From contig JBBIQV010000001.1 of the NCBI GenBank assembly GCA_037442105.1, positions 124,001 through 172,358 on the forward strand: a stretch of 48,358 nucleotides of DNA, given 5' to 3'. Positions 23,784 to 46,631 of the stretch are shown here, piece by piece; position 1 is the first letter of the stretch, and each line of letters opens with the position of its first letter. The stretch is from Nitrospiraceae bacterium (GTDB taxonomy: Bacteria > Nitrospirota > Nitrospiria > Nitrospirales > Nitrospiraceae). The notes beneath the pieces are model-generated. The model ran no database searches. It worked only from the letters and a program-made list of their open reading frames with translations, and had not been told where the DNA came from. Position numbers and translations under genes: made by a program.

Positions 23784-23894
23784 GGCGGTTCGTCTGCCTT
23801 CAACTGCGCGCATCGAGCGAGCACCGCCCATAATGTAGCAATCTGTTTATTCTTGTGTGCGGGCTCTGCGAGCATAGAAGGGAGACGAACCGCC
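23784..23894 (+). repeat. Bulged-hairpin family, copy E
   Basis: Outer stem GGCGGTTCGTCT/AGACGAACCGCC; core TGC-G-CGCA-TC-GAGC-GA-GCAC...GTGC-GG-GCTC-TGCG-A-GCA. Confidence 0.85.
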
Positions 23895-23948
23895 AGGTCA
23901 CTTCTTCTTGTGTGCGCGCTCCGGGAGCACAGGACCAACACGGATGCC

Positions 23949-24062
23949 CTACGGCCTTCCCATCTTCGCCAACTCCTCAAAATAGTGCACGAACGCCTTC
24001 ATCCCGCCGGAGGCTTGCCCCCAGTCGAAGTATTCGTTCGGTGCGTGGTAGCCGTGCTCGGG
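23949..24062 (-). pseudogene. Duplicated 3' end of the M20 dipeptidase gene
   Basis: Encodes [37 protein letters not shown]; 23957-24062 matches 26963-27068 with 10 mismatches in 106 nt. Confidence 0.9.
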
Positions 24063-24073
24063 TTGTGTGGTGT

Positions 24074-24278
24074 GGGGTCTTGCAATCACACATTCACCTC
24101 TTACGCCGATACATCTACAGGTGACTTGAGCGTGAATCTTGCCGGATTCGACACAAAGAATGCACTGAGAACTCAGCGGCGACCTCTCGCAAAGGACAGA
24201 AGACAGCGGAGACGACGGGGCACGGGATAACAAGCTCCGACGGCGACTGCCGAATGTGGGATTACAAGACCTGACCCC
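24074..24278. mobile_element. Small inverted-repeat (MITE/REP-like) element
   Basis: GGTCTTGCAATCACACATTC (24076-24095) and GAATGTGGGATTACAAGACC (24252-24271) are complementary at 18/20; right end continues TGACCCC. Confidence 0.55.
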
Positions 24279-24314
24279 GATCGTCTGACCTCAACCTTCA
24301 TAAAACCATTTCGT

Positions 24315-24356
24315 GACTCATAGTCCGTAGCACTTTACGTCACTTGTTCGTAATAT
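24315..24356 (+). promoter_or_regulatory. C-box operator and leaderless promoter of the C-R operon
   Basis: GACT-CAT-AGTC-CGTA-(G)CACT-TTA-CGTC; TAATAT -10 lies 7 nt before the GTG start. Confidence 0.75.
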
Positions 24357-24363
24357 TGGCCGC

Positions 24364-24579
24364 GTGAAATCGGATGCGACAAAGCATTTCGGCCGGCGGG
24401 TTAGGGAAAGACGAGAGAAGTTGCGTCTCTCGCAGGAAGACTTCGCCGATCAAGTCGGGCTGGATCGCACGTATGTCAGTGGTATTGAGCGGGGAACAAG
24501 AAATCCGACCCTTGCGACAATGAAACGTCTTGCGGAGGGCCTTGGCGTCCCACTCGAAACGCTTCTAAAGGGTCTCTGA
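24364..24579 (+). CDS. Restriction-modification controller (C) protein
   Basis: FGRRVRERR..LSQEDFADQVGLDRTYVSGIERGTRNPTL; C-box upstream and REase 3 nt downstream. Confidence 0.9.
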   Translation: MKSDATKHFGRRVRERREKLRLSQEDFADQVGLDRTYVSGIERGTRNPTLATMKRLAEGLGVPLETLLKGL

Positions 24580-24582
24580 CGA

Positions 24583-25470
24583 ATGGTCCCCAAGCACATT
24601 AAGCGCGCTTCTGATCTTGTAACTTCCCATCAGGCCGTGTGCAGCGGTTTTCTTGATCAAGCCTTAACAAAGACACAAAAGGCGACGCCCTATGTCGAGG
24701 CTGCGTTGTCATTTTGGCGCATGCTCCAAGACGCGGCAGAAATCTCAGAACTTCTACAATCGACTGAGTACCGAGATCACTTGCTGGCGGCAGCCGGATT
24801 TTCGGACAAAGCTATGAATCACCTTTCCCAGCCTGAACTGAGCCAAGCGTTGCAGAAGGTATTCGAGACCTTCTTAAAGAGATCGGGAACGCATTTCCGC
24901 GAAGAAGTTTTCTGCAGGTATCTCCTTACGAGAGGTGATGCTCTCGGAGGTCAGATGCGCAACGTAACCGGGGCTGCCGGCCAAACTCGACTTACTAAGG
25001 CGATCCTGGAAGCGTTGAAGAGAACTGGAACTACACATAACACACTGCTCGCAGTCAACGGGGAAAAGATCCAGCGAATTTCCTGGAGCAGTCGACGATT
25101 GCTTTTTGGCGTGAAGCCCAAACTGATTAACAAGAGTATCGATGTTATTCTGCTGGACACAGCGAGTGGCAACGATAAAGAAACTCTTCTCGAGAGACCC
25201 GCAGCCTATCTTGCCTGCGGCGAACTGAAAAGTGGCATTGTCCCTGCAGGAGCCGACGAACATTGGAAAACGGCTAAGACCGCCTTGAGCAGAATACGCT
25301 CGAAGCTCAAGCGCGCATGCCCATCGCTTTTCTTCGTCGCAGCTGCGATTGAAACGGCTATGGCAAAGGAGATCTTCAGGGACTTGAAGAAGGGGTATCT
25401 CACCCACGCAGCCAATCTCACTGATGACCGGCAAGTTGAAGACTTGGCTTCTTGGCTGATTTCACTTTAG
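24583..25470 (+). CDS. Type II restriction endonuclease, BsoBI/AvaI family
   Basis: RYLLTRGDALGGQMRN and YLACGELKSGIVPAGADEHWKTA resemble the family motif ELKGGIDPAGADEHWKTA. Confidence 0.85.
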   Translation: MVPKHIKRASDLVTSHQAVCSGFLDQALTKTQKATPYVEAALSFWRMLQDAAEISELLQSTEYRDHLLAAAGFSDKAMNHLSQPELSQALQKVFETFLKRSGTHFREEVFCRYLLTRGDALGGQMRNVTGAAGQTRLTKAILEALKRTGTTHNTLLAVNGEKIQRISWSSRRLLFGVKPKLINKSIDVILLDTASGNDKETLLERPAAYLACGELKSGIVPAGADEHWKTAKTALSRIRSKLKRACPSLFFVAAAIETAMAKEIFRDLKKGYLTHAANLTDDRQVEDLASWLISL

Positions 25471-26878
25471 GCGCGCGCCAGACGTACACACATTTTCTCA
25501 ACGATTCACGCCCAAACTCACCCATTTGCTGACTGCTATTTCCTTTGCCATTCGGTAAAACCCATATTTTTTCGACGCGATACCCGGCACTTTCTGCAAG
25601 AGCCGACAGAATCAAATCGACAGAGATGTTTGCGCCTTCATACCTGACATTATCATTGACCATCACAAAGGGAGCACCTGGTTTCAGAGCCCGTGCACAT
25701 TCATAAATTACCAGCGTCATTTCCCAGAAATAGTTGCGCACCATCCTGGGGATGCCATTGTTATTGAGCAACCGCGCAGCCTTACGATCATCGAGATATT
25801 GAAGAATTGCGCTCAAGCATTCTTGGGCCTTAAAGCTTGCAGAGGCGCGAGAATACCTTTTCCCCTCGAACAAGTTTAACAACCCCTGCTTCTCGCGATT
25901 TTCCACAGTACATGACAACATCGTTTGCCGAAGATCCCTTAGTCCATCTTCGCCAATGCCTAGCAGAGCAAGCTCAAGCGCGTATGTACGTGTGTAATCA
26001 TAGCGGTTGCAGTAAGGCGGCGATGTTATCAGCGCATCGAAGCAGTGATCCGGGAGTTTGGGCAATTCCTCCAAACAAGATCCACCGACGATATCAATTC
26101 GACCGTTGTCCGAACCGGTGGGAAAGAGATCAAGGACTCCTACATTGCCCTCAAGATCATCGAGTATTTCACCGAGCTTGATGTCTAATGCTTCGTCAAA
26201 GCCGAAAATCTTCCCTTTGTCGAATGGCTTCAGGCCCTGTTTTCTTCCCGATCGATAGTCCCATCGAAGATATTGTCCATCTTTTCTCGTGAAGCTGATC
26301 TGCTCAAGAACACACAGCGCGGCAAATCGCAGAAGACGACGCGTCACCTCGGATTTCTCTTTGTCAGTTTCGGCCAGGTATCTCCCCAGCAATGTTTCGT
26401 TCTCTTTGGAAAATGCGCCCATTGTAATCCGCAGATGTGGAAAAGGATAACTCTGGCCCGACTTCCTCCAGGGTTTTGCTTTTTGCCATCGCCTGAGATC
26501 ATCGATGTACACACGACTTCTATCCGATACAGTGAGTTTCCGAACTTCAATAATTTCCTGTCCTATCGGCAACAACTCGATGCCGGTTGAGTCGAGACCG
26601 CGATGACTTGCTACAAAGAGAGTCGTACCAGCTCCAGCAAAAGGATCGAGTACCGTTCCCGATTTCATTCCAAGGTAATCCAGCAGATAATGGACAAGGG
26701 CGGCGGAGAAACCTTCCTTGTACTTGAACCAACGAAAGCCTTCTTCTTGTTTGTTGGCCTGAAAACTTACAAGGGCCCTTGTCAAATGCGAGTTAACCTG
26801 CAATTGAGAAGCGAATCGCGCTTCTAACTGCTCATCCATATGGTTGATTGATTTAACCGTTACCATGCCGCGGAACAT
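25418..26878 (-). CDS. Amino (probably N4-cytosine) DNA methyltransferase, convergent with the REase
   Basis: RWFKYKEGFS and VLDPFAGAGTT (motif I) precede ITSPPY (motif IV); KGNSSQQMG. Confidence 0.92.
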   Translation of the reverse strand: MFRGMVTVKSINHMDEQLEARFASQLQVNSHLTRALVSFQANKQEEGFRWFKYKEGFSAALVHYLLDYLGMKSGTVLDPFAGAGTTLFVASHRGLDSTGIELLPIGQEIIEVRKLTVSDRSRVYIDDLRRWQKAKPWRKSGQSYPFPHLRITMGAFSKENETLLGRYLAETDKEKSEVTRRLLRFAALCVLEQISFTRKDGQYLRWDYRSGRKQGLKPFDKGKIFGFDEALDIKLGEILDDLEGNVGVLDLFPTGSDNGRIDIVGGSCLEELPKLPDHCFDALITSPPYCNRYDYTRTYALELALLGIGEDGLRDLRQTMLSCTVENREKQGLLNLFEGKRYSRASASFKAQECLSAILQYLDDRKAARLLNNNGIPRMVRNYFWEMTLVIYECARALKPGAPFVMVNDNVRYEGANISVDLILSALAESAGYRVEKIWVLPNGKGNSSQQMGEFGRESLRKCVYVWRAPKVKSAKKPSLQLAGHQ

Positions 26879-26884
26879 ACGCCA

Positions 26885-26901
26885 TTATGTTACTCATAGT
26901 C
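26885..26901 (-). promoter_or_regulatory. Single C-box at the methyltransferase promoter
   Basis: TACT-CAT-AGTC at 26891-26901 (10/11 identical to the 24315 box), beside a minus-strand CATAAT just upstream of ATG 26878. Confidence 0.6.
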
Positions 26902-26954
26902 AACCATCATTCCAGCACGAATAGCATCAAACAGTTGAGTTGTCTGACCGCTCC

Positions 26955-28331
26955 CTATTTCGTTCCCATCTTCGCCAACTCCTCAAAGTAATGCGCAAAC
27001 GCCTTCATCCCGCCGGAGGCCTGGCCCCAATCGAAATATTCGTTCGGCGCGTGGTAGCCGTGTTCGGGCAGGCTCAAGCCCATGAAGAGGATCGGCACGT
27101 TCCACGCCTTCTGCATCGTGACGACCGCACCGATCGAGCCTCCCTCGCGGATGAAGGCCGGTTCTTTCCCGAAGCCCGCCTTCACGGCCCGTTTTACCGT
27201 CTCGACGTAGGGTCCCTCGAAGCTCCCGCGAAACGGCTGCAACATGTTCTCGCGCTCAACTCTTACCGTAGGATTCACCTTTTTGACGTAGCGTTTGAGC
27301 ACATCGAAGGCCTTCTCCGGCGTTTGATTCGGTACGAGGCGCATGCTGACTTTCAGCTCCCCATAGCCAGGCACGATCGTTTTCACTCCCGGCCCGTGAT
27401 AGCCGCCACTGAGGCCGTGCACCTCGAAGGTCGGCCTGGCCCAGATGCGACTGAGCACCTCCGCAGGCTTCGCGGTTCGCAGGGAGTGAAACCCATAGGC
27501 CTTCATGAACCGCTTCACCTGGAAACCGGATGCGAGGAAACTCTTGATCTCCGCCTTCGTCGGCGCAATCACGTCCTTATAGAATCCCGGAATCTTCACG
27601 CGGCCGGTCTTGGCGTCAAGACAGGCCATCGCCACGTCCATGAGCTCGGCCAGCGGATTCCTCGCGGCGCCGCCGGTCAGTCCGGAATGGGCATCTTTCT
27701 CGCCGGTGCGCAGCACCAAGCGCGCACCGGCAAGACCCCGCAGGCCGTAGGGCATCGCCGGTCGATCCTTAGAGATCCAAATCGTATCGGAGACGACGAC
27801 GGAATCCGGCCGCGGAATGCGCGCACGATCGCGGAGCGCCGCGGCAAAGCTGAGGCTCCCATTCTCTTCTTCCAACTCCCAGAGCAAGCGAATGTTGAGA
27901 GGCACACCCTGGTCGATGGCGTATTTCGCGGCGAACAGAGCGGTGAGCGCAGGGCCTTTGTCATCGGTGGCGCCCCGGCCATGATAGATGCCGTCTTGAT
28001 TGCGAAATGCGAACGGCGCTTGCCGCCACTCCGGCTCCTGCGCCGGCTGGACATCAAGGTGGTTGTAGATGGTCACCGTCGGATGATGCTTGCCGGTCGT
28101 CCACCCACCAGACACTACCGGATAGCCGGGCGTCTCGACGATGTGCGCCTCCGCGCCAAGCTCGCGCAGATACTGAACCGCCAGTTCAGCCGCGCGCCTG
28201 ATATCCGGCGCATGGTGCGGGTCCATGCTGATGGAAGGAATCTCGACCATCTGCCCCAGCAGGTCTTCGAAACGCGGCTTGATCTGTTCGATGTAAGCAC
28301 TCAGGTGCGTGGCGTTGATCGTCATCCTCAT
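26955..28331 (-). CDS. M20-family dipeptidase (M20/M25/M40 metallohydrolase)
   Basis: YNHLDVQP, GRGATDDKGP, EEENGS, HSG, EGGSI and HAPNE motifs. Confidence 0.93.
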   Translation of the reverse strand: MRMTINATHLSAYIEQIKPRFEDLLGQMVEIPSISMDPHHAPDIRRAAELAVQYLRELGAEAHIVETPGYPVVSGGWTTGKHHPTVTIYNHLDVQPAQEPEWRQAPFAFRNQDGIYHGRGATDDKGPALTALFAAKYAIDQGVPLNIRLLWELEEENGSLSFAAALRDRARIPRPDSVVVSDTIWISKDRPAMPYGLRGLAGARLVLRTGEKDAHSGLTGGAARNPLAELMDVAMACLDAKTGRVKIPGFYKDVIAPTKAEIKSFLASGFQVKRFMKAYGFHSLRTAKPAEVLSRIWARPTFEVHGLSGGYHGPGVKTIVPGYGELKVSMRLVPNQTPEKAFDVLKRYVKKVNPTVRVERENMLQPFRGSFEGPYVETVKRAVKAGFGKEPAFIREGGSIGAVVTMQKAWNVPILFMGLSLPEHGYHAPNEYFDWGQASGGMKAFAHYFEELAKMGTK

Positions 28332-28423
28332 GCTCCTCGGTGAGTCGGCGCGGCATTATAGCGCCGTGCTGAAAGGAGAGAAAGCCACGAACCGACTTCT
28401 GAGGCCCACTCGAAGATGCTAGA

Positions 28424-28867
28424 ATGCCGGCCATGCAATGGATCGCCGTGCTGTTTCTGCTTCTTGTCGCTCCTCCTACCATGGCCCAGGAAACGGTCTC
28501 TATTGACGAGATCGTGGCACGACCGGACCTCTACCATCTGCACCAAGTCGTCCTTCGCGGAATCGTCCGAGACCTTCAAGCTCTGCCTCCTTACAAGATT
28601 CCGACAGGGGACTACTGTTATGGCGCGTTTCTCTTCCGGCTGGAGGATGATACGGGATCCATCGCGGTGGCCGTGCTGGGGATGTGCGATAAGCCCATCC
28701 TGAGGGAACTCAACGTGGCAGAAGGCGATCAGGCCGAAGTGCGGGCGGTCATCCATGCTCCCGGACATGGCACACACTACCTCAGTGTGCAAGGCCTCCG
28801 CATTTCGACCGAGGAACGGGGAGAGATCCAGGCGGTCGCTGCGAATATCGTACGGCTCGATCCATAG
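28424..28867 (+). CDS. Exported OB-fold hypothetical protein
   Basis: Signal peptide; VSIDEI..PDLY...VVLRGIV, FRLEDDTGSIAV and EGDQAEV. Confidence 0.7.
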   Translation: MPAMQWIAVLFLLLVAPPTMAQETVSIDEIVARPDLYHLHQVVLRGIVRDLQALPPYKIPTGDYCYGAFLFRLEDDTGSIAVAVLGMCDKPILRELNVAEGDQAEVRAVIHAPGHGTHYLSVQGLRISTEERGEIQAVAANIVRLDP

Positions 28868-28892
28868 CAGAGGATGGAGAAGAAAGAAACTG

Positions 28893-29582
28893 ATGAAGAG
28901 GAGTGGCTGGCTCATTATCGTGCTGGTACTTGCGGGTTGCACCGGCAGCAAGGGCTTCGATCACGCAGCGCTGCGTGAGGCCTTGCGTCAAGATTCCTTC
29001 ACACTGTCCAATTCGCCAAATCAGATCGAGCCCCAGTCCGCCGCGCGACCGGCGCTGCCTGCAAAGTTGGCCCTCTATCTCAAGCCTACCCGTGTCCTGA
29101 ATCGCCGTTTCGAGTGGACCGATGCGGACAAGGATACATTCCGCACCTGGGCGAGCGATCTCAAGAGTCGCGGCCTATTGTCGGACCTGTACGTCGTGGC
29201 GGAATCGTCGGTGACGGGCACACAGAACTCACGCGAGGTGGCTGCCCGCTATGGCGCTGAAGTGCTGTTGATTGTCGAGGGCGCCACCGACCTCGATCGG
29301 TACAACAATTACAAAGGTCCGTTGCTGTACTGGACGATCTTGGGTGCCTATCTCGCAGCCGGCACGCACAGCGACGCCCTCTGCCTGGTCACCGCTTCCT
29401 TGTGGGATGTCCGGGCCGGCGCTCGCTACTTTACCGTAGAATCAGAGGGGCAGGCCAAGGCTGTCGGCCCGGCGGCGTTTCTCGATGACAAGGATGCGAT
29501 CGACCGGGCGAAGCAGGCGGCCATCGGAGACCTTCAACGAAAGCTGAGCGAACGGCTTCGCAGCGCGAGCGAGAATCCCTGA
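28893..29582 (+). CDS. Lipoprotein of unknown function
   Basis: Lipobox LAG-C; AARYGAEVLL, LYWTILGAYL and ASLWDVRAG. Confidence 0.75.
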   Translation: MKRSGWLIIVLVLAGCTGSKGFDHAALREALRQDSFTLSNSPNQIEPQSAARPALPAKLALYLKPTRVLNRRFEWTDADKDTFRTWASDLKSRGLLSDLYVVAESSVTGTQNSREVAARYGAEVLLIVEGATDLDRYNNYKGPLLYWTILGAYLAAGTHSDALCLVTASLWDVRAGARYFTVESEGQAKAVGPAAFLDDKDAIDRAKQAAIGDLQRKLSERLRSASENP

Positions 29583-29588
29583 CCGACT

Positions 29589-30788: not shown

Positions 30789-30908
30789 GTCGCTCCTGGA
30801 CTCAGTGTGAATGACGGGAATCGGAGGGAGACTGTACACGAACGAGGGCGGAGGAGGAAGGGTAAGAAGGTCGATTTGTCGGAGTGGATTTCGAGGGGCC
30901 GATCTCTC

Positions 30909-31478: not shown

Positions 31479-31531
31479 GACGAACCACCTCTTCCTCTTT
31501 CATTCCTCACACTCTATAGCTCCGGATGGGG

Positions 31532-31683
31532 AGGGCTGCCGAGTAGCCTCCCACTGCGCGCGTCCACCGAGCGCTTTCTTCATTAGGGTCGAGCGATGCT
31601 CGACACGGGAGGGGGCCCGAACCAACTCCCCTCCCGTACCCACAGCGCGGGGTGCGCGAGCAAGGAGGCTACTCGGCAGCCCT
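31532..31683 (+). repeat. Bulged-hairpin family, copy A (branched loop)
   Basis: Perfect 20-bp outer stem AGGGCTGCCGAGTAGCCTCC/GGAGGCTACTCGGCAGCCCT; core TGC-G-CGCG-TC-CACC-GA-GCGC...GCGC-GG-GGTG-CGCG-A-GCA; two extra hairpins in the loop. Confidence 0.9.
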
Positions 31684-31694
31684 TCTCCCACGCC

Positions 31695-32165: not shown

Positions 32166-32169
32166 GACG

Positions 32170-33132: not shown

Positions 33133-33149
33133 AAAATATGATGCTCACA

Positions 33150-33992: not shown

Positions 33993-34065
33993 AACAAGCT
34001 CGTAGCAAGCAGCAAATAGCCAGAAAATTAATCCTGATTTCTCGCTCGAAGCTATTCGCTACCTG

Positions 34066-34572: not shown

Positions 34573-34610
34573 AGTTCAGCGATCCCCGCAGAGAGTTACG
34601 GCTATTGGCG

Positions 34611-35081: not shown

Positions 35082-35456
35082 ATGAAAGTGAAGCGGCTAA
35101 AAGTGGGGGTTCGCCCTTTAGAAGAAGGGTTGCAGGAGTTCGGTGCAACGCTCAAGGCTCTCCAGGCGGGCAAGACCTTGCCCAAGCGAACAGGGGTCTA
35201 CTTCGTCAGTGTCGAAGCGATGCGGCAAGTGCTCACGCCGTCACGCCTGACCTTGCTGCATCTCATTCGGACTCGTCATCCCCGCTCCATTGCCGCGTTG
35301 GCGAAGCTGATGCGTCGGGACTTTAAGAACGTCCATACCGATCTGAAGCTGTTAGCCGATCTCGGACTGGTGCACTTGGAACCCGGAGCGCATCTGCGGG
35401 ACTCCGTCACCCCGACCGTTCCCTATGAACGAATTCAGTTCGAGATCGCTGTGTGA
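35082..35456 (+). CDS. wHTH regulator, HVO_A0114/TumA-like antitoxin
   Basis: QVLTPSRLTLL..PRSIAALAKLMRRDFKNVHTDLKLL..LGLV...PTVPYERI. Confidence 0.75.
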   Translation: MKVKRLKVGVRPLEEGLQEFGATLKALQAGKTLPKRTGVYFVSVEAMRQVLTPSRLTLLHLIRTRHPRSIAALAKLMRRDFKNVHTDLKLLADLGLVHLEPGAHLRDSVTPTVPYERIQFEIAV

Positions 35457-35470
35457 GGGGGATAAGAGGC

Positions 35471-36089
35471 TTAGGATTTCGAGGCAAGACCGCCGAGGAA
35501 TTTCGCCGCGTCTCTTGTAATCTGCTCGGCCGTCCGGCTATTCGGTTGAAGTTTCGCGGCCCAAGGTCGGCCCGGATGGACCGTGTCCCATGATGATCGC
35601 TGCTGGTTGTATCTTCCTTTCCCCGGATCGTGGTTCCCAAAGCCGTCGATCTGCGGGTTCCACAACGGGGAAAACATCGTAATCAGCAGCGACTCGCCCA
35701 GCGGAATCCAGATGTCATCGACGATCAAATACCGGCATCGGAAGTCCGCCAACTCAAGATTCTCCGCTTGCTCGATCGAGTCGGCATGCTCTCGCAGCCG
35801 CCTGTAGAGAACCTCACCGGGGTCCTCTCCAAGGCCATAGCCCCCCCTTGCGAGCGCCGGGAGGAACGGCCTTCCCGACGTAGATCGGAGCAGCCCATCG
35901 ATGATGACGATTGTTCTTCGCAAGCTCATGATAAGCGGAGAACGACCCCGCATAGTAGATCGCATAGATGCCGGCCCCTTCAAACGGCTCAGGCGGAGGA
36001 AGCGAGACGACCGGCCGCTCCAGCAGAGCCTTGGTGACACTTTCGCCAAGATTGGACTTTTCGAGCGGATTGTACGGTTCGTCGGGCAT
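35471..36089 (-). pseudogene. Eco29kI-family GIY-YIG restriction endonuclease, frameshifted
   Basis: N-half (GAGIYAIYY...PIYVGKA.P.GARKG) and C-half (RLREH, IPLGESLLI, PLWN..IDGFGNHDPG.GR, WDTVHPGR.WA) are in different frames, joined at a G7 run (C7 at 35841-35847). Confidence 0.88.
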
Positions 36090-36101
36090 CGAATCCCATC
36101 C

Positions 36102-37520
36102 TCAGGGCTTCCGTATGATGACCGCCGACTCGTACAAGGTGGCCTTCGTTGGAAGTCCCCTGCGGACGGATGACTGTGTGACGCTGGCCCCGACTCTCTT
36201 GTCCCGGATACAGGGAGTTCCCTCCAATTCAAATCCTTGCTGGACGGCAATCTCTCCAAGGATTCGTTCAACCTTGATCTCCAAGCCCTGAATGATTGAA
36301 TTACCGATCACAATCACTCCCACTCCACCTCGCTTCATCACTCTCTTCAAGACCCCGAGGAAGCGATCGCAATCATTGAAGTAGGAGACCACATAATTGG
36401 CCCATCCTGGGCCACCATAGGCCCCGGCACTCTTGCGAATTTCACGGAGTTGTTTAAGAACTTTTTCAAGCTCACGGTGTTGGAAGTTCAGTGTGAGGTC
36501 GTGCCCGTCTCGCACGGTCTGCCAAAACTTCCCTAAGTTGCCCGTTTCCAGCTCCCGTTGCTGTTGCGGCGACGAGATGAAGGAGAGCCAGTACAACTGC
36601 GGCCTGGTATTGCGGACATAGTGATAGTTGTTCATGTACGGAGGCGATGTGACCATCAAGTCCACCGATGCCGCCTCCAGCTCGTCATGGTCGGTCAAAA
36701 AATTCGCATTCAGAACCCGGCCCGCCCCGACGGCCGTTGTCTCGTGTGTCTGTTCCCGAAGCCACGCGATGTCGGCCCGCATGTGGTGTAGCTTATGGAG
36801 TAAGACGGCCAAGACATCGGCATCCTCGACCAACGGTTTTCCTGCTCCGGGTCGAGAGCCCAGACTCGGCTCATAGGTGTAGTTGGAGACGGTCACGATG
36901 ATAGAGCCCAAAGCGATGCGGAACAGGGTTGCAATGCGTTCATCCGGGATCGACGCAAAGAAACCCAGCGCGTGCAGCACCTGTCGCTCCACGCGAGGAC
37001 TCAAGAACGGGATTCGCGTTTTCAGATTCGGCGCACCGATCCCGTTCGGCGGGGGCTCCGAGCGCCAGGTTTTCCCCGCCCGTCTCGCCTCGTCTATCCA
37101 CGCATCAAACTGTTCGAGGTTGATCGTGAAAGTTTGGAGCTTGGCTGTCGCCGCCAGCGCCGGGTAGGGATTGATCTCGAAGCCGATGGCATCGTGGCCA
37201 TTAAGAACAGCCTGCAAGAGTGTCGTGCCAACCCCAGCGAAGGGATCGAGCACAAGCCTTCTTCTAGGCCCGCTGACCGGGCGCAGGTAGGCGGCACACA
37301 CGCTGTCGACGAATGACGCCGAGAATCCGGCAATCCATGGAACCCAACGGTGCACAGGCAGACTCTTGTTCTCTCCGAAGGCCGGGTCTCGAAACACACC
37401 ATTGGCTGGGTCCGCAGATCCAAAGCTGAACAGGGGGAGTTGGTTTCGCGGAGAACGTGGAGAAGCTTCCTGGTAGGTCGCTTCTGTTTCGGCAACTCGG
37501 GAATTGCCTGATTGAAGCAT
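36102..37520 (-). CDS. Amino (N4C/N6A) DNA methyltransferase, partner of the GIY-YIG REase
   Basis: HRWVPWIAGFS, VLDPFAGVGTT and VTSPPY; GAGGT RBS before ATG 37520; ends 12 nt before the REase start. Confidence 0.9.
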   Translation of the reverse strand: MLQSGNSRVAETEATYQEASPRSPRNQLPLFSFGSADPANGVFRDPAFGENKSLPVHRWVPWIAGFSASFVDSVCAAYLRPVSGPRRRLVLDPFAGVGTTLLQAVLNGHDAIGFEINPYPALAATAKLQTFTINLEQFDAWIDEARRAGKTWRSEPPPNGIGAPNLKTRIPFLSPRVERQVLHALGFFASIPDERIATLFRIALGSIIVTVSNYTYEPSLGSRPGAGKPLVEDADVLAVLLHKLHHMRADIAWLREQTHETTAVGAGRVLNANFLTDHDELEAASVDLMVTSPPYMNNYHYVRNTRPQLYWLSFISSPQQQRELETGNLGKFWQTVRDGHDLTLNFQHRELEKVLKQLREIRKSAGAYGGPGWANYVVSYFNDCDRFLGVLKRVMKRGGVGVIVIGNSIIQGLEIKVERILGEIAVQQGFELEGTPCIRDKRVGASVTQSSVRRGLPTKATLYESAVIIRKP

Positions 37521-37815
37521 TCGATGACCTCTGCCAATGAGTTTGTTCTTCGCTAGTCGAGATCGAGTGTTGGTGGCAGGTTGCACGGGCACGGATGCTA
37601 CGCACCCTATTGGCAAGTGTCAATATTCAAGTTTGAGCAACAGTGAGCCTCTAGAATTTTTCTTCCATGCCGCACAAGCTCAATAGGTTGTCTCTTACCT
37701 GTTTCTTTCCGCGGACTCCCTGAGCTTCCTCAATCCCCTTTATGTGCGAAGGGTTCAGAGTCTCCGCTGCTATTGCAGCCGTCGAACAAGCGCTTTCTCC
37801 ACTCACCGCTCTTGG

Positions 37816-37913
37816 GGCTCGGTGGGCCATGAAAGCCTGGCTGCGCGCGTCCAACGAGCACTGCTTCACCGTGCGGGTTGCGCGAGCACGAGGCTTTCAT
37901 GGCCCACCGAGCC
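37816..37913 (+). repeat. Bulged-hairpin family, copy B
   Basis: Perfect 23-bp outer stem GGCTCGGTGGGCCATGAAAGCCT/AGGCTTTCATGGCCCACCGAGCC; core TGC-G-CGCG-TC-CAAC-GA-GCAC...GTGC-GG-GTTG-CGCG-A-GCA. Confidence 0.9.
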
Positions 37914-37920
37914 TTTCCCC

Positions 37921-39396: not shown

Positions 39397-41036
39397 TGCG
39401 TCACCTCGCCGCTCGGCAATGCCGTCATTTTCTTATTCTTGTCGTTCCCCTTTTTCACCAGAATGCCGACCGTGCGATTTGATTTGATCAAATACTGCGT
39501 CGCCACCCGCTGAATGTCGGCAGGCGTCACCGCGGCGATGCGATCCCGGGCCTTTAAGACGTAGCGCCATTCGCCTGCGACCGTCTGGTACAGGGCCAAC
39601 TGCGAGGCCAATCCCGCGTTCGACCGGAGAGAGCGGACCAAATCGGCATCCAGGTTGTTCAGCACTTTTTCCAGCTCTTTGGCCGAAACCGGTTCGGTCT
39701 TGAGCCGTTCGAGTTCCTCAAGAATCGCCGCTTCTACCTCGGCTGTCGTGTGCGGTGCCCGAGGCGTCGCCATCACGACAAAGAGGTTCGGCGCGCGCAC
39801 GCCCGGATAATTTGTATCGGACGTGACGGAGGCCGCCAGCCGTTTGTCTCGCACCAACCGGCTATAGAGTCGGGAGGTCACACCATCGGTCAATACCGCA
39901 TCGATCACGTCGAACACATAATCATCCGGATGACCGATACCCGGCTTGTGGTAGCCGATCGCCAGCGACGGTTCCGCATCGAACTCGACCTCGACCCGCC
40001 GTTCACCCCGCTGCAGCGGCTCGACCGTGAGCACCGGAGGGGCGGGCGGCGAGGCGGGAATGTTTCCGAAGGTATTCTCGATCAGCGCGAGGACTTCCTT
40101 CGGATTAATGTCGCCGACGATCGCAATCGTGGCGTTCCCCGGCCCATAGTAAGTCTTGAAGAACTCCTCCGTCGCGGTCGGCGTGAGCGCCTGAATATCG
40201 GACGCCCACCCGATAGTCGGCACGCCGTAGGGATGGGCTTGGAACGCCGCGGCCGTGAACGTCTCGAACAACATGCCGTTGGGGCTGTCCTCTGTCCGCA
40301 GCCGCCGCTCCTCCATCACGACGCCGCGTTCCTTATAAAACTCGCGCAACACAGGATGCGCCATGCGGTCGGCCTCGAGCGCCGCCCAGAGGGGAAGCCG
40401 GTTGGCCGGCAGGCTGATCATGTAGCGTGTCAGGTCCTTGCCGGTGGCCGCATTGAGCCCGACGCCGCCGTGCCGCTGGTACAGCAACGCCATTTCGTTG
40501 CCGACCACGTAGTGCCCCGCCCTTTCTTGCAGCTCCTTGAATCGTTGCTGCAGCGCCTCCAGTGTTGTCTCTGCCGGCGTGTTCGAATTCCCCGCCTGAG
40601 CAGCGGCAGTCATCTCCCGCTGCTTTAGTTCGAGCTCGGTGCCCACGCGGTGCAACTCATCCAACAGCTCCCGTTCTTTCTCGTAATCTCTCGTGCCGAC
40701 CGTGCGCGTTCCCTTGAACGCCATGTGTTCGTACAGATGCGCAATGCCGGTCCGGCTGACTTGCTCATTGATGCCCCCGACGCCAAATGTGAGATTGATC
40801 GAGACGACAGGAGTTTGGTGTCGCTCGACCATAAGCACCGTGAGCCCGTTCGCCAGCTTGTGTTCGATCACGCGGTCGGCCAGACTGGCCGCCTGCGGCG
40901 CGTCCGCCGCAGAAGACAGGTTGAGGTCGAGGCTCAGGCTGAGGGGTGGAGGCAGAAGAAACAGGAGCAAGACAAGCCCGAACGTCAATCCCACCCTCAA
41001 CCTTAACCTCAGCCTCAACCTTGATTTCGTCTTCAT
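39393..41036 (-). CDS. M16 peptidase, catalytic subunit
   Basis: LANGL, GIAHLYEHMAFKGT (HxxEH), ERGVVMEERR and HPYG; ATGA overlaps on both sides. Confidence 0.93.
   Translation of the reverse strand: MKTKSRLRLRLRLRVGLTFGLVLLLFLLPPPLSLSLDLNLSSAADAPQAASLADRVIEHKLANGLTVLMVERHQTPVVSINLTFGVGGINEQVSRTGIAHLYEHMAFKGTRTVGTRDYEKERELLDELHRVGTELELKQREMTAAAQAGNSNTPAETTLEALQQRFKELQERAGHYVVGNEMALLYQRHGGVGLNAATGKDLTRYMISLPANRLPLWAALEADRMAHPVLREFYKERGVVMEERRLRTEDSPNGMLFETFTAAAFQAHPYGVPTIGWASDIQALTPTATEEFFKTYYGPGNATIAIVGDINPKEVLALIENTFGNIPASPPAPPVLTVEPLQRGERRVEVEFDAEPSLAIGYHKPGIGHPDDYVFDVIDAVLTDGVTSRLYSRLVRDKRLAASVTSDTNYPGVRAPNLFVVMATPRAPHTTAEVEAAILEELERLKTEPVSAKELEKVLNNLDADLVRSLRSNAGLASQLALYQTVAGEWRYVLKARDRIAAVTPADIQRVATQYLIKSNRTVGILVKKGNDKNKKMTALPSGEVTQ
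40920..41024. repeat. Inverted hexamer-period tracts within the M16 N-terminus
   Basis: (TTGAGG/CTGAGG)n versus (CCTCAA/CCTCAG)n, encoding RLRLRLRLR and LSLSLDLNL. Confidence 0.7.
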
Positions 41037-41686
41037 ATGAACAGCTCCATCAGATCTTCCGGTCGTTCGATGAACCACTCCGGTTGGCACGCGGCCATCT
41101 TGGCCCGGTTGCCCATGCCGTAACCCACAGCACAGACTCTGACCCCCGCATTGTGGCCTCCGTTGATATCGTTCGTACTGTCGCCGATGAGCACGGTCCG
41201 TTCCTTCGGCACGTTGAGCTGCTCCATCACGTGAAGCAACATCCCGGGTTCCGGCTTGAGGCCGAAACCGTTATCGCCTCCGACCACGCAGGCGAAGTAG
41301 TGGCGCCCCAGGCCGTTCAGAATGACGTTGGTGTACTCGATCGACTTGTTCGTCGCGACGGCCTTCCGCTTGTACGCGAAGTGGGCCAGCACCGGCTCAA
41401 TACCAGGGAAATAGCGGGTGCGGTCCAGACAGTGGGCGAGGTAGTGTCCGCGAAACACGCGCAGCGCCTCTTCGTACCGGGGTTGCGTCTCCTCGCCGAC
41501 GGCCAACCGCAGCAGCCGCTTCACGCCGTCCCCGACAAAGCCGAAGATTTCCGCTAACGGGCGCTGCGGCAACCCCAGTTCAGATAGTGTCAGGTTCACC
41601 GATTCGGCGATGTCCCACTTGGACTCGATCAACGTGCCGTCCAGATCGAAGATCAAAAGATCGACTTCGACTTTTCCCATTTTCAC
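41033..41686 (-). CDS. HAD hydrolase, phosphoglycolate phosphatase-like
   Basis: IFDLDGTLI, FVGDG, ATNK, KPEP, IGDS..DI and VGYG. Confidence 0.88.
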   Translation of the reverse strand: MKMGKVEVDLLIFDLDGTLIESKWDIAESVNLTLSELGLPQRPLAEIFGFVGDGVKRLLRLAVGEETQPRYEEALRVFRGHYLAHCLDRTRYFPGIEPVLAHFAYKRKAVATNKSIEYTNVILNGLGRHYFACVVGGDNGFGLKPEPGMLLHVMEQLNVPKERTVLIGDSTNDINGGHNAGVRVCAVGYGMGNRAKMAACQPEWFIERPEDLMELFI

Positions 41687-42249
41687 TTCACCCTTCGCAA
41701 TTCTTCCTGGAGCGAGGCCAACACGGCGCGACGCTCAGGATCGGCTTCTTGGAGCATGGAATGCCGCACATAATTGATGAGCCGTTTCGGTCCCACGTGC
41801 GGTGGCAGGACCGGCTCGACGATCCGCCACCGGTTCTTGACCGCCTTCACACGAACCCGCACCTGCTCGGTGATCGGTTCCGGACGGAAGCTGCCGGTCG
41901 TCAGGTACACGGACCCCAGCACCTGAAACTCCACCGGGATGACGACCTCCAGCTTGTTGACGACCTCCCATTGCTTGATGTCTTCCGGAACCGTAAAACT
42001 CTCGATCACCACCACGCGCCCCCACACCGGCTCGTCCTTCCAATTAATATACGGGAGCAGGGTGTCGAAACCAGCGGCGTCCAGGCGAACGCCTTTTGCG
42101 TCAAGGGACAGGTAGCGTTTGACGATCTCGGTCGGCGAATGGTCGAGCGCACCGGTTTGAGCCGACACGCCATCTGAAATAGCAAACACCACGAGCGCCA
42201 GACACAGGCACCTGACAACCCTCCGCTTTAGCTCGGTTCTCAAGGTCAT
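41683..42249 (-). CDS. Exported hypothetical protein
   Basis: Signal peptide (VSA-Q); stop overlaps the next start in the operon. Confidence 0.75.
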   Translation of the reverse strand: MTLRTELKRRVVRCLCLALVVFAISDGVSAQTGALDHSPTEIVKRYLSLDAKGVRLDAAGFDTLLPYINWKDEPVWGRVVVIESFTVPEDIKQWEVVNKLEVVIPVEFQVLGSVYLTTGSFRPEPITEQVRVRVKAVKNRWRIVEPVLPPHVGPKRLINYVRHSMLQEADPERRAVLASLQEELRRVK

Positions 42250-42279
42250 CTCTTCCGTCTCACACTTTCGCCTTTAGTC

Positions 42280-42371
42280 GGGGGGCTGAGCGGGNNNNNN
42301 NNNNNNNNNNNNTCCAGCGAGCACTTTCTGAAGTGCGGGCTGCGCGAGCACGGAGCCCCGCTCAGCCCCCC
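42280..42371 (+). repeat. Bulged-hairpin family, copy C (spans assembly gap)
   Basis: Outer stem GGGGGGCTGAGCGGG/CCCGCTCAGCCCCCC; after the Ns, TC-CAGC-GA-GCACTT-TCTG-AAGTGC-GG-GCTG-CGCG-A-GCA. Confidence 0.85.
42295..42312. other. Assembly gap (18 N)
   Basis: Run of n characters. Confidence 1.
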
Positions 42372-42376
42372 AACGC

Positions 42377-43828
42377 TCACCCCACCTCGTGGAGTTTCAT
42401 CACATTGGTTCCGCCGGGCTGCCCGGCGACCGTCCCGGAGAGCAGCACGATCCGTTGCCCGGCATCAGCGAGTTTCTCCTCTTTGAGGCGACGTTCGACC
42501 TCCAGGACCCGTTCATCCGGATTCTGGATGCGGGGCATCGTGTAAGGAATCACTCCCCAATACAGGGCCATGCGCCGTCTCACATCCTCGTGCGGCGTGA
42601 AGGCAACGATCGGCGCAGCGGGGCGCTGTTTCGACACCAGTCGAGCGGTCGTCCCCGATTCGCTGAACGCCACGATCGCCGTGGCACCGATTCCCGCTGC
42701 GGCCGAAGCCCCGGCCTCACACATGGCTTCCGGGATGGAACGGGCTTCCCGCTCCCGCCGCTCCCTGCGTCGAACCCGTGGCACAGCTTCCTCTTCGGCA
42801 GCTCGTACGATCCGATCCATCACGCGCACAGCCTCCACCGGATAACGGCCGGTCGCTGTTTCCGCCGACAACATCACCGCATCCGTGCCGTCGAAGACGG
42901 CGTTGGCCACATCGGACGCTTCAGCCCTCGTCGGGCGAGGATGTTCCGTCATGGACTCCAGCATCTGCGTCGCCGTGATGACGAGGCGGTGCCGGCGGTT
43001 GGCTTCGGTGATGATCCGCTTCTGGAAAATGGGCACACCTTCGGGTCCCATCTCCACGCCGAGATCTCCGCGCGCGATCATCACTCCGTCAGCCTCGGCC
43101 AGCAGATCGGGCAACGAAGCAATGGCTTCGGCCCGTTCGATTTTGGCGATGATGGGCTGATCGCCGCCGCAACCCGCCACCACCTGCCGGGCCGCCGCCA
43201 CATCCTTCGGGCCACGGACAAACGAGAGCGCCATATAGTCCACCCCCTGCACGACACCGAAGCGAATATCGTCGCGATCCTTGTCCGTCAGGGTCGGGGC
43301 GCTGATCGCCGTTCCCGGCAGATTGATCCCTTTATTGGAAGTCACATGCCCGCCGGCAAGCACGCGACACTCAACGGCCCCTCGCACAATGCTGACCACC
43401 GTCAGCTCGATGAGACCGTCGTCGATCAAAATTCGCGCGCCCGGTCTCACATCACGTGCGAGCTGAGGATAGGTCACAGGAATCTCGGTGCCGATGGAGG
43501 GCGTCACCGTCTGCGCGCCGATCTGTCCGCCGGAACGGAGCATGCCGCCGGTCAGCCTGACTCGCTGCTCCGGCACAAGCTCGATGCCGCCTTCCTGCAG
43601 CATCCCCACACGAATCCTGGGCCCCTGCAGGTCCTGAAGGATGGCCACCACCGCCTTCCGGCGCGCGGCCACTTCGCGGATGGTCTGGATCGCCAGCCGA
43701 TGGGTCTCTTGCGTGCCGTGTGAAAAGTTGAGCCGGGCGACATCCATACCCCCTTCGATGAGTTGGTCCACGAGACCGGGGGTACTGCTCGCCGGCCCGA
43801 TGGTACAGACGATCTTGGCTTTGCGCAT
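42377..43828 (-). CDS. pyk: Pyruvate kinase
   Basis: KIVCTIGPAS, RLNFSHG, DLQGPRIR, IAKIE, MIARGDLGVE, TQMLESM, PTRAE and MLSAETA. Confidence 0.97.
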   Translation of the reverse strand: MRKAKIVCTIGPASSTPGLVDQLIEGGMDVARLNFSHGTQETHRLAIQTIREVAARRKAVVAILQDLQGPRIRVGMLQEGGIELVPEQRVRLTGGMLRSGGQIGAQTVTPSIGTEIPVTYPQLARDVRPGARILIDDGLIELTVVSIVRGAVECRVLAGGHVTSNKGINLPGTAISAPTLTDKDRDDIRFGVVQGVDYMALSFVRGPKDVAAARQVVAGCGGDQPIIAKIERAEAIASLPDLLAEADGVMIARGDLGVEMGPEGVPIFQKRIITEANRRHRLVITATQMLESMTEHPRPTRAEASDVANAVFDGTDAVMLSAETATGRYPVEAVRVMDRIVRAAEEEAVPRVRRRERREREARSIPEAMCEAGASAAAGIGATAIVAFSESGTTARLVSKQRPAAPIVAFTPHEDVRRRMALYWGVIPYTMPRIQNPDERVLEVERRLKEEKLADAGQRIVLLSGTVAGQPGGTNVMKLHEVG

Positions 43829-44043
43829 GGAGAGAGTCGCCAGCCGTCAACCGTCATGCGTCAATCGACGAGGCACAGTTTCCTTCTGGATTCACGAGTG
43901 ACGGTTGACGGGTGACCAATGACGGATTTGGGCCTTCAGCGCATTCTAACACCGCCTTTTCGGGCTCGCAAAGATTCTCCGGGAACGATGGAAACCTCGC
44001 GTTGACCTTCCTCAGGATCACATGGTACGGTTCCGCAGGAACA

Positions 44044-44583
44044 ATGCCGAGCAAGAATCCATTGCAGTCCGCCAAATCTCCCTGGGCATACCTTCTCACC
44101 GTAAAAGAAAATCAGAAGTACGACACGGCCCTCACGATCCCCAACGGATTTACCCTTAAAGTTGCCAGAGGCGCGAAATGCAAAACCAAAGACGGCCTGT
44201 TCGCCGAATTTGCCCGCGCTCTTTCCTTTCCGGATTACTTCGGCCACGACTGGGATGCGCTCGAGGAATGCTTGGCCGATCTCGAATGGCTCCCCGCCAA
44301 AGGGTATGTGGTGATCGTAACCGACGCGGAGCAAGTCCTCGCCAAAGACAAAGAGGAATACCCGACCTTCATCGACATCCTCAACGACGCCGGCGAGAGC
44401 TGGAGTAGCCGCCAGGGCAACAGCGCCGCTCAGACCGGGGTTCCCTTTCACATAGTCCTCGTGGTATCGGAACGACACAAGTCCGCGCGGAAGAGCTTGC
44501 TGGTTCCTGCGCTCCAGTGCGAAGATACGCGAGGGCGGGCAACGCGCAACAACGTGTCGAAGATCAGATCCAAGGGGCGCTAA
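44044..44583 (+). CDS. Barstar-family protein
   Basis: LFAEFARALSFPDYFGHDWDALEECLADLEW. Confidence 0.88.
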   Translation: MPSKNPLQSAKSPWAYLLTVKENQKYDTALTIPNGFTLKVARGAKCKTKDGLFAEFARALSFPDYFGHDWDALEECLADLEWLPAKGYVVIVTDAEQVLAKDKEEYPTFIDILNDAGESWSSRQGNSAAQTGVPFHIVLVVSERHKSARKSLLVPALQCEDTRGRATRNNVSKIRSKGR

Positions 44584-44888
44584 TCAAAGGGGTTCTGTGG
44601 CCCTTCGAGCAACGCACGTTCCTCACGCCATCGGGCTTGCAAGACAGTGAAATGCGACGCACAGATGCCGTGCGTTTCGTGGGGATCGTCCATAGGCGCT
44701 TTCACACCAAGGACTGCCGGCTTCCCTTCTCGCTCGCACCAGGCGCAGATAATTGTCACGGCGTTTCACCACAGAATATGATCGGCGAGAGATTTTATGC
44801 AGCAAGAGTCGCGCCACCGCCGGCCCCATGCTCCTTTTCTCGGTTTCTTGACCCCCCCTAGAGGCCCATGTTACGGTTCGCCCCCGTT

Positions 44889-46172
44889 ATGAAGACGAGC
44901 CGATCCCAGCAACTCTTTACCGACGCCCAGCGGTACATTCCCGGCGGCGTCAACAGCCCGGTTCGGGCGTTCCGCTCCGTCGGCGGCCAACCGCTCTTCA
45001 TCAAGCGCGCCAAAGGGTCACGGCTCTATGACGCGGATGGCAACAGCTTCATCGACTATGTCCTATCCTGGGGACCGATGATTCTCGGCCACGCGCCGGC
45101 GCCGGTCATCAAGGCCATCGGTCGCGCAGCCGCCAACGGCACGAGCTACGGAGCACCGACCGAATTGGAAGTGCAGCTTGCCCGGATGATCCGCGAGGCC
45201 CTACCGTCGATGGAGAAGGTCCGGCTGGTCAGTTCCGGCACCGAGGCGGTCATGAGCGCCATCCGTGTGGCCCGTGCCTTCACCAAGCGCGACGCGATTC
45301 TCAAGTTCGAAGGCTGTTACCACGGCCACAGCGACTACCTGCTGGCAAAAGCGGGATCGGGCTTGGCCACGCTCGGCATTCCCGACTCGCCCGGCGTGCC
45401 GGCCGACTTCACCCGCCACACGCTGACAGCTCCCTACAACGACGTCCGCTCGGTGCAGCAACTCGTGAAAGAGCATCATGCGAAACTGGCCTGCATCATC
45501 GTTGAGCCCATCGCCGGCAATATGGGCGTGGTGCCGCCCGCTCCGGATTTTCTCCCCACGTTGAGGCAGCTCACCCAGGAGCACGGCATCCTGTTGATCT
45601 TCGACGAAGTCATCACCGGCTTCCGCGTGCTATATGGCGGGGCGCAGACACTCTATGGAGTCACCCCGGACCTCACCTGCTTGGGGAAAATTATCGGCGG
45701 AGGTTTGCCGGTGGGCGCCTACGGAGGCCGCAAAGAGATCATGGATTTGATCGCGCCGGCTGGTCCCGTGTATCAGGCGGGAACCCTGTCGGGGAATCCG
45801 TTGGCGGTGACCGCCGGCATTGAGACGCTGAAGCGACTGAAGGCACCAGGGGTCTACCGAAAGCTTGAAGAAGGCTCAGCGGCATTGGCGAAAGGGTTGG
45901 GGGAGGCAGCACGCAAAGCAGGGGTGAAGCTGTCGCAAACCAGGGTTGGCTCGATGCTGGGGGCTTTCTTCAAGAAGGGGCCAGTGGTGGACTGGGAATC
46001 GGCGAAACAGTCAGATACGAAAGCCTACGCAACCTTCTTTCACCGCATGCTCGTCAAGGGCGTCTATTTCGCCCCCTCCCAGTTCGAAGCGGCGTTTCTC
46101 TCAACCGCCCACACCCCCACGGACATCGAGCACACGATCCGCGCCGCGCGAGCCGCTTTCAAGAGCTTATAG
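44889..46172 (+). CDS. hemL: Glutamate-1-semialdehyde 2,1-aminomutase
   Basis: [54 protein letters not shown] and PSQFEA. Confidence 0.97.
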
Positions 46173-46196
46173 CAAATACCGGCCATAGGCTCTTGC

Positions 46197-46241
46197 GGCT
46201 GTATCGAAAAGGATTCGGCTCGTATCTGGCTCGATACAGCC
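46197..46241. terminator. Inverted repeat between convergent genes
   Basis: GGCTGTATCGA / TCGATACAGCC 11-bp stem; long loop and no U-tract. Confidence 0.35.
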
Positions 46242-46249
46242 CCTCTTCT

Positions 46250-46480
46250 CTATTCCTCATCCTCGTCATCGGCTTCTAATGCCTCCTGCCGCTTCTGCTC
46301 CTCCATCGCGTTGTTCAGAAGCATCCGGATGAACATCGAATAGAGCGAGCCTTTTTCGATGGTGCCTCCCGGCGGAACTGCGATCTTCCCTTCCTTTATC
46401 ATGCGGTCCATCCACGCCTTCTGATCGGGAGCGATCAGAATCGGGATCTCGACCAATCCAACTCGTCCGAACATATCCAT
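46250..46480 (-). CDS. Small hypothetical protein with acidic tail (possibly RHH-like)
   Basis: Strong GAGGAGG RBS; strand-helix-helix pattern ending SMFIRMLL. Confidence 0.75.
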   Translation of the reverse strand: MDMFGRVGLVEIPILIAPDQKAWMDRMIKEGKIAVPPGGTIEKGSLYSMFIRMLLNNAMEEQKRQEALEADDEDEE

Positions 46481-46527
46481 GGGATAATCCTCCTCTTACA
46501 AGCCTTTTACTTTCCTCATCTCCCCAA

Positions 46528-46631
46528 GTGAGCGGGGTGAGCGGTTTGCCTCTGAATTGCGCCCGTCGAGCGAGCACTTTCTGAAGTGCGGGCTCCGGGA
46601 GCACGGGAGGCGAACTGCTCACCCCGCTCAC
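46528..46631 (+). repeat. Bulged-hairpin family, copy D
   Basis: ~26-bp outer stem with three G-T pairs on the + strand; core TGC-G-CCCG-TC-GAGC-GA-GCACTT-TCTG-AAGTGC-GG-GCTC-CGGG-A-GCA. Confidence 0.9.

Follow-up and report, generated by a model that had tools for sequence, protein, structure and literature searches.

A REP-like hairpin repeat of Nitrospiraceae with a conserved mismatched core and outer arms that at times copy host codons

As described in the sections of the literature drawn on here, REPINs, repetitive extragenic palindromic (REP) sequences and bacterial interspersed mosaic elements (BIMEs) are extragenic hairpins of about 100 nt that occur in tens of copies in restricted lineages near gene 3′ ends (PMC3116915; PMC6006769; PMC3733652), with clustering, nesting, an inferred single-stranded mobility in trans and compensatory changes, which are common in REPIN spacers (PMC3116915). 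CGTC REPs, for which no dedicated transposase is known, lie near stop codons and carry their tag at the free end, with stems of 8–9 bp starting with AT and a CCA tail (PMC3733652). Prokaryotic miniature inverted-repeat transposable elements, known as MITEs, are non-coding, form a long stem-loop, are inferred to be mobile and often sit at stop codons (PMC3184786). Integron attC sites conserve structure over sequence, follow a gene, fold from the antisense strand and have extrahelical bases and a tolerant apical loop (PMC9024848). In quasi-palindrome correction, polymerase template switching homogenizes the arms of bacterial inverted repeats, so that both arms change in concert and adjacent DNA is copied into one of them (PMC5941160). 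Here, we describe a dispersed hairpin repeat that resembles each of these, starting from five copies in a 48,358-nt stretch of a Nitrospiraceae bacterium (GCA_037442105.1, JBBIQV010000001.1, positions 124,001–172,358). This stretch, referred to below as the window, forms the end of contig C1 in an 87% complete assembly of 2.81 Mb.

The hairpin repeat is ∼97 nt long, with a 46-nt core, a 3×2 loop and an outer stem of 20–25 bp of free sequence. The best fit is the REP-like reading raised in a preliminary description of the window, as the repeat is an extragenic multicopy hairpin near gene 3′ ends that turns over between relatives. However, it is the reverse of a REPIN in that the core is conserved and the stem is free; it has no GTAG foot (5′ GTAG in 2 and GTGG in 8 of 277 copies, with a position profile lacking a conserved foot) and no flanked REP-associated tyrosine transposase (RAYT), its orientation is strictly antisense and its arms copy host codons. 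It shares a C(G/A)TC motif, just before the inner hairpin, with CGTC REPs, but the motif is internal, half-paired and enclosed by the long outer stem, and the short stem and tail of those repeats are absent. Unlike MITEs, it has neither conserved termini nor a target-site duplication; unlike attC sites, it lacks an R-box consensus, lies outside cassette arrays, follows housekeeping genes and is independent of the integron integrase IntI. In contrast to simple quasi-palindrome correction, an invariant mismatched core is spared and the corrected tract seems to end at a nearly fixed length.

Structure and range of the hairpin repeat

All five hairpins of the preliminary description (copies A–E; Table 1) were recovered at their positions, with helices, bulge and outer stems as described there. 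A strict descriptor matched four times in the window, against zero matches in 200 third-order Markov copies; the left half of copy C is partly N, so this copy cannot match such a descriptor. DNA folding z-scores on the + strand were −6.0, −10.3 and −9.2 for copies A, D and E, respectively, in all of which the − strand folds slightly more weakly.

Read along the folding strand, the element comprises the outer stem (median 22–24 bp), a 3×2 or 3×1 loop, TGC:GCA, a G.A mismatch, four pairs, a TC bulge, four to five pairs, an A.G mismatch, four pairs and an apical loop in which insertions are tolerated. The two TGC(G.A) boxes are inverted about the TC bulge, giving a two-fold symmetric arrangement of a type that may be read by a dimeric protein. 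Using a descriptor in which no letter was fixed at unpaired places, 219 matches were obtained, in which the G.A mismatch was conserved in all 219, the TC bulge in 206 and the GA in 218. The 2×2 loop that had been considered invariant is so only in part: its GG side reads GC in 118 of the 219 matches, and a single A.G mismatch is fixed. A covariance model was built from 93 sequences. Covariation of the helices was maintained in the 93-sequence alignment, with 718 cells showing two-sided change compared with 289 after shuffling and a covariation score of 0.47 compared with 0.12–0.23 for slid registers, although relatedness inflates these values. Core pairs are, for example, GC in 63 and AU in 30 sequences, GC in 53 and CG in 38, or AU in 50, GC in 28 and CG in 14. 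As originally proposed, shape and unpaired bases are conserved while the paired bases covary.

Both flanks of the repeat are 70–80% pyrimidine. Many copies in other genomes are preceded by a pyrimidine-rich 5′ leader of ∼24 nt, the end of which is complementary to part of the core; in this genome, 5 of 16 loose leader matches precede a copy or half-copy, as judged by eye. A long-loop subtype, with a loop of ∼33 nt starting with CGCCC (window 23825–23856; loci L271, L283, L433 and L456), is found across genera.

The covariance model finds 55 copies in this genome, 32 on the + strand and 23 on the − strand; the co-orientation noted for the window, where all five copies do lie on the + strand, is therefore local. 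Copy number ranges from 0 to 88 across 41 relatives (one unpublished genome, G006, adds one to this tally, to the four-helix-bundle, GIY-YIG, DUF559 and Y1 tallies given below and to the 29 four-helix-bundle loci, and no other result depends on it). Of the other family genomes, 21 of 24 gave matches (1–88 copies each), as did four of five genomes of one sister family (1–3 weak matches each) but none of 11 from two further sister families. A phylum-wide sample gave matches in 16 of 18 family members and in 0 of 102 others. Among the matches listed in a genome scan, the 80 named records are all labelled Nitrospira, Nitrospiraceae, Nitrospirales or Nitrospirota, apart from one unclassified ‘bacterium’, and N. 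defluvii has 17 model matches; we therefore take the family to be Nitrospiraceae.

The repeat matches nothing in Rfam or in any described REP family, in keeping with the earlier failure to recognize it. A search of the window against Rfam (15) at E ≤ 1 returned tRNA only, and collections of viral contigs, phages and plasmids gave no match to the repeat. No description was found in a literature search, which had subscription papers and supplements outside its scope; the motif lists in supplements of RNA-motif surveys and of a 2026 preprint could still contain the repeat, although Rfam 15 does not. In a term look-up, ‘Nitrospir’ was absent from the text covered of PMC3733652, PMC3184786, PMC5737381, PMC8632094 and bioRxiv 10.64898/2026.10.21.760802. 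The portion of PMC12306157 concerned with N. moscoviensis gives a palindrome count only, and two clusters of attC sites lacking integrases (CALINs) are reported in N. inopinata (PMC9024848).

Turnover behind stop codons and origin of the outer arms

Slots directly behind stop codons gain, lose and exchange hairpins, which are also inserted into the apical loops of older ones and almost always lie antisense to the gene that they follow. According to gene calls from our own hexamer model, which is not a standard annotator, the stop codon of an opposite-strand gene lies within 30 nt (mostly within 12 nt) of the end of 39 of the 55 copies, a same-strand stop adjoins one copy and 15 copies have neither. 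The preceding genes are mostly housekeeping genes in operons, and a copy between convergent genes generally lies closer to whichever gene it is antisense to (seven of eight loci). Co-orientation goes with gene direction in this way. Replichore was rejected as the sole cause of orientation, since five of the seven exceptions among 30 loci of the complete genome G024 still have a gene in antisense orientation on their 3′ side. Orientation matches replichore in 27 of 36 cases in G024 and in 12 of 16 in N. defluvii (with the origin assumed to be at base 1); an added replichore effect (34 of 39 versus 65%, p = 0.004) is not separable from the co-orientation of core genes.

The sister species (G001) has 89 copies, with 31 mapping to occupied syntenic slots and 21 initially scored as empty. 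Five of these 21 were set aside as tandem or ambiguous and one proved to be a decayed copy, leaving 15 empty slots, seven of which hold heptamer-repeat hairpins by eye. The 28 comparable slots shared by the two species divide equally into 14 with the same element and 14 with a different one. At the atpD–atpC junction, sorted by eye in 30 genomes, the hairpin repeat with varied arms is present in 13 genomes, heptamer hairpins in about 11, no gap in three and something else in three. The last residues of AtpD vary between genomes in step with the inserted repeat (L422–L451), and insertions in this slot therefore often rewrite the stop codon. The slot of copy D is occupied by a full or partial element in 11 of 30 genomes. 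Eighteen long-loop cases have matching outer arms and most are a whole copy inside the apical loop of an older one; stacked left halves and stacked right halves are common, and are seen around copy A in the window. Because copies are gained, lost, replaced and nested, the behaviour of the hairpin repeat is that of mobile DNA and not of a fixed structured RNA.

The + (antisense) strand is indeed the better-folding strand, as the preliminary description had it. The ratio of interior G.T to A.C on the element strand is 24:8 in this genome, 50:15 in the sister species and 95:22 elsewhere, and remains 47:24 (p = 0.009) after removal of similar arms; a control set of 137 other hairpins (224:237) was dominated by heptamer arrays and uninformative. 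It is therefore the template strand that folds best, which counts against an mRNA hairpin as the selected form. The reported lack of a U-tract was also borne out, as TTTT follows the stem in 4 of 49 copies on either strand, and an intrinsic terminator was rejected on this count for the mRNA strand.

The outer stems had been called interchangeable. They are of free sequence, with a median pairwise arm identity of 43% in this genome and no conserved terminus, but they are not selected for pairing alone and in part represent copies of target DNA. Arm families, the largest with 24 members, reappear at unrelated loci with the leader included, and arms therefore travel with the element; 127 of 277 arms have no close relative. 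The two arms change together: 14 orthologous pairs contain 15 compensated double changes, compared with 3.6 double changes expected. Moreover, the gene-distal arm at times copies the last codons of the gene. Among the testable copies, which are those with a stop inside the stem span, the distal arm matches the host stop and last codon at five or more of six positions in 9 of 19 (null 0.65; 0 of 5000 draws), and of the eight copies whose stop lies within 19 nt of the core, seven have host codons in the distal arm. The position of the stem end, ∼24–25 nt from the core, does not depend on how far away the stop lies (r = −0.09, n = 99). For guaA, atpD, a trpE-like gene and two more, the codons that match are ancestral; in guaA, 10 of 10 bases match here and the sister species has a different element in the slot. 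Copying from the gene end into the distal arm would fit synthesis of the sense strand, which is G-rich, and presumably leading, in 34 of 39 cases.

Copy D is joined to a 2,672-bp restriction-modification block (Table 1) that is identical in a genome of another genus, G047, whose flanks are 67–86% alike. Identity stops 12 nt into the core of copy D; G047 keeps its own right half, leaving the arms unpaired (−20.7 versus −46.3 kcal/mol for copy D). In sequencing run X1, a possible source, the block is at roughly double depth and a contig begins 30 nt before the end of identity, and runs X2 and X3 reveal a near-identical conspecific strain with 1,225 other bases in place of the block and copy D. 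The crossover represents a single event, for which recombination between two ∼85% identical cores is explanation enough, without a special enzyme. In the sister species the Eco29kI-like block is 72% alike, and the conspecific strain has other sequence in its place, indicating a defence slot of fast turnover.

Mechanism and competing explanations

The hairpin repeat is probably an undescribed, non-autonomous REP/REPIN-like mobile hairpin of Nitrospiraceae, the arms of which are rewritten from local DNA. In such a scheme, the antisense strand would fold as single-stranded DNA, and its inverted G.A boxes and bulge might be the recognition site of a dimeric protein that nicks or recombines DNA in trans. 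Polymerase template switching, as in quasi-palindrome correction, would then use the proximal side of the inserted copy to rewrite the distal arm, and the mismatched core might be retained because copies without it stop moving. Possible side effects include 3′ untranslated region (UTR) effects on the host mRNA and the provision of a portable homology patch where transferred DNA can end.

Several observations weigh against this interpretation. No target-site duplication was found on comparing the longest word shared by the flanks with its null (3.59/3.53 here, 3.86/3.63 in G001 and 3.90/3.83 in others), and transposition is therefore deduced from turnover alone; short duplications are visible by eye in a few nested cases. 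There is no clean pair of empty and filled sites, as the sister species is ∼83% identical and its empty sites have diverged, and half of the shared slots are well conserved, as expected of a host-useful RNA element. A second, cruder scoring of the G.T pairs that includes stem ends gives a weaker bias, 56:37 (p = 0.06) and 36:28 (p = 0.38). Of the nine copied-arm cases, two share the atpD slot, and for three (L103, L172 and L179) the matched codons are not shown to be ancestral. Plain template switching does not obviously give a near-fixed stem length or a spared core. An autonomous form, with a gene between matching halves 150–2500 nt apart, is absent from the genome and the loci, and clustering of 1115 neighbour genes gave no recurrent mobile gene, only host and toxin–antitoxin genes recurring. 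The hairpin repeat was absent from the 24 PF01797 (Y1-transposase) loci checked among 25 listed. No cognate enzyme was found among the gene classes tested, and its protein partner is one that we infer.

Neither enzyme link suggested by the preliminary description held. As regards HUH/RAYT enzymes, a Y1 transposase is present in 13 of 25 genomes and does not track the repeat, and PF01797 was not found in G003, G004, G011 and G015, which hold 11–36 copies. The tyrosine recombinase link failed in the same manner, an IntI match occurring in 8 of 41 genomes with no relation to copy number. Two RAYT-like Y1 genes (L001 and L002; G000 C8:20357–20683 and C59:812–1135) have short terminal inverted repeats (TIRs) of the TIRYT type and not REPs. 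Also rejected were reverse transcriptase (one of five genomes) and GxxExxY (3 of 41), neither of which tracks the repeat, IS110 (two of five, in low-copy genomes only) and DUF559 (17 of 41, none of them G000, G001 or G018). GIY-YIG nucleases match in 41 of 41 genomes by way of a ∼600-aa housekeeping protein, and none of ten small ones viewed is flanked by the hairpin repeat. Small GIY-YIG nuclease genes at L498, L494, L490 and L491 have either CGTC-type REPs or a different hairpin family at their flanks, with a true CGTC repeat at L498, and offer a lead towards the missing enzyme of the CGTC repeats.

The presence of four-helix-bundle genes agrees with that of the hairpin repeat in 39 of 41 genomes, and both use the same slot. 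Their copy numbers do not correspond, however, and the 29 loci viewed have heptamer arrays instead of the hairpin repeat at their flanks, making the gene a weak lead as a partner. These PF05635 genes (L518–L547; for example L519, G000 C1:114200–114514) lie right behind a host stop codon and, in nearly all of the 29 loci, between two inverted arrays of mostly 7-nt repeats, the unit of which differs per locus. Heptamer hairpins without a gene occupy many post-stop slots of this genome. The two look like the autonomous and non-autonomous forms of an undescribed mobile element, for which no paper was found in our literature search.

A dedicated enzyme, which we consider a rather unlikely alternative, would nick at the core and prime ∼23 nt of fold-back synthesis on the DNA 3′ of it, at insertion or repair, so that the stem would be a fixed-length inverted target duplication. 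This would account for the nearly constant stem end, the host codons in most distal arms when the stop is close to the core, the many arms without a close relative and the difference between the fresh chimera of G047, with its unmatched arms, and the perfectly matched copy D. However, the arm families at unrelated loci indicate that arms also travel, the proximal arm is new sequence at the ancestrally gap-less atpD–atpC junction and there is no candidate enzyme. We are similarly doubtful of an extended version in which a dimeric enzyme would read the 46-nt core, insert on the template strand behind stops and build or renew the ∼23-bp stem as an inverted target copy in place of a direct duplication, which would make the repeat a new kind of non-autonomous mobile DNA, the same nicking making the core a crossover point for defence-gene transfer between genera.

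It is improbable that the repeat is instead a host-selected structured RNA (a 3′-UTR stabilizer, an RNase III-type processing stem, a Rho-dependent attenuator or an antisense RNA) spread by ordinary recombination only. Its position behind the stops of housekeeping genes, mostly inside operons, its 20–25-bp stem of free sequence and the conservation of 14 of 28 shared slots are consistent with such a role, and E. coli REPs are described as 3′-UTR regulators in the part of a recent preprint drawn on here (bioRxiv 10.64898/2026.03.23.713779). Nevertheless, G.T pairs favour the antisense strand by about 3:1, genomes range from no copies to 88, slots are taken over by unrelated hairpins, copies are nested, TTTT seldom follows the stem on either strand and 15 of 55 copies are away from any called stop.

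That a DDE (IS5-like) transposase moves the repeat into YTAR sites as a classical TIR MITE is very improbable and, for the hairpin itself, largely refuted. In formal terms the outer stem is a terminal inverted repeat, and 17 of 150 copies in other genomes lie within a conserved TIR-like end pair, but 0 of 49 do so here, the stem ends have no conserved sequence, the same YTAR is found on both sides of only 1 of 46, 0 of 69 and 0 of 122 copies (1 of 237), and flank sharing is at or near its null. The TIR-bounded repeat (L318, L319, L329 and others), which often carries the hairpin repeat in other Nitrospiraceae, has an end with 27 loose matches in this genome, none of them around a copy.

Paired attC boxes have the consensus RYYYAAC/GTTRRRY. 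It is scarcely credible that the repeat is a dispersed site of attC type acted on by the integron integrase that lies 750 bp from copy E: it follows genes, folds from the antisense strand and has extrahelical bases, with IntI genes or fragments near copies in four places, but such boxes occur in 0 of 277 copies on either strand, it is housekeeping genes that are followed, G018 combines 88 copies with no IntI match, and G002 has a full IntI and one copy.

Features of the window and biological meaning

The features of the window are collected in Table 1. The preliminary description missed the three half-elements listed there; it placed copy A ∼55 nt past the stop of the duplicated M20 gene end, which is in fact abutted by a half-element and not by copy A. 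A BsoBI-like restriction-modification pair sits between the two M20 3′ ends, and together with a HicAB pair forms an insertion around the duplicated 3′ end (22959–26878). The sister species is without this ∼4-kb insert, and the same slot there holds a different copy of the hairpin repeat. All four genome matches of the second hairpin family are seen in hairpin-repeat loops, and the family also occurs in G001 and G047. The integron integrase of the window and another in G000 (C39:23712–24929) have ∼90 extra N-terminal residues, the first 71 without an NCBIfam match; no attC array was noticed with them, though no search aimed at one was made. A minus-strand tRNA gene lies at 2161–2233.

Table 1. 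Copies, fragments and neighbouring features in the window
Feature	Position	Strand	Remarks
Left-half fragment of another copy (arm and core start)	23676–23711	+	Identified from sequence
Copy A, long-loop subtype; core 23805–23874	23784–23894	+	71.9 bits; lies 5′ of the right half of another copy
Right-half fragment of another copy	23912–23948	+	Abuts stop (23949) of duplicated M20 3′ end
M20 peptidase gene, duplicated 3′ end	23957–24062	−	91% identical to 26963–27068
Copy B; core 31555–31662	31532–31683	+	11 nt from stop of minus-strand Lcl-domain gene
Second-family hairpin within copy B loop	31586–31641	+	4 matches in genome
2,672-bp block: 3′ part of HVO_A0114 gene, Eco29kI-like nuclease, methylase, left arm of copy D	35182–37853		Identical in G047
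Degenerate left-half core fragment, upstream of copy D	37774–37789	+	
Copy D; core 37842–37888	37816–37913	+	90.6 bits; 7 nt from minus-strand M16 peptidase stop
Copy C, left half partly unreadable	42280–42371	+	5 nt from pyruvate kinase stop
Copy E; core 46558–46603	46528–46631	+	85.3 bits; between divergent genes; same element in sister species
Integron integrase, truncated by contig end	47388–48356	+	TIGR02249 above cut-off; neighbour, not cognate enzyme

The origin, spread and arm matching of palindromic repeats without an enzyme, such as the CGTC REPs, are an open question that the hairpin repeat makes testable. Its arms record templated copying of known direction, from the gene end into the distal arm, and its core is a precise bait for protein pull-down, with cultured Nitrospira carrying the repeat. 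If the fixed-length inverted copy is made by an enzyme, this would be a new insertion chemistry; if it arises by plain template switching, the repeat would be a clear natural record of the ends of a mobile element being rewritten. The crossover at copy D suggests that such repeats help restriction systems to move between nitrifier genera.

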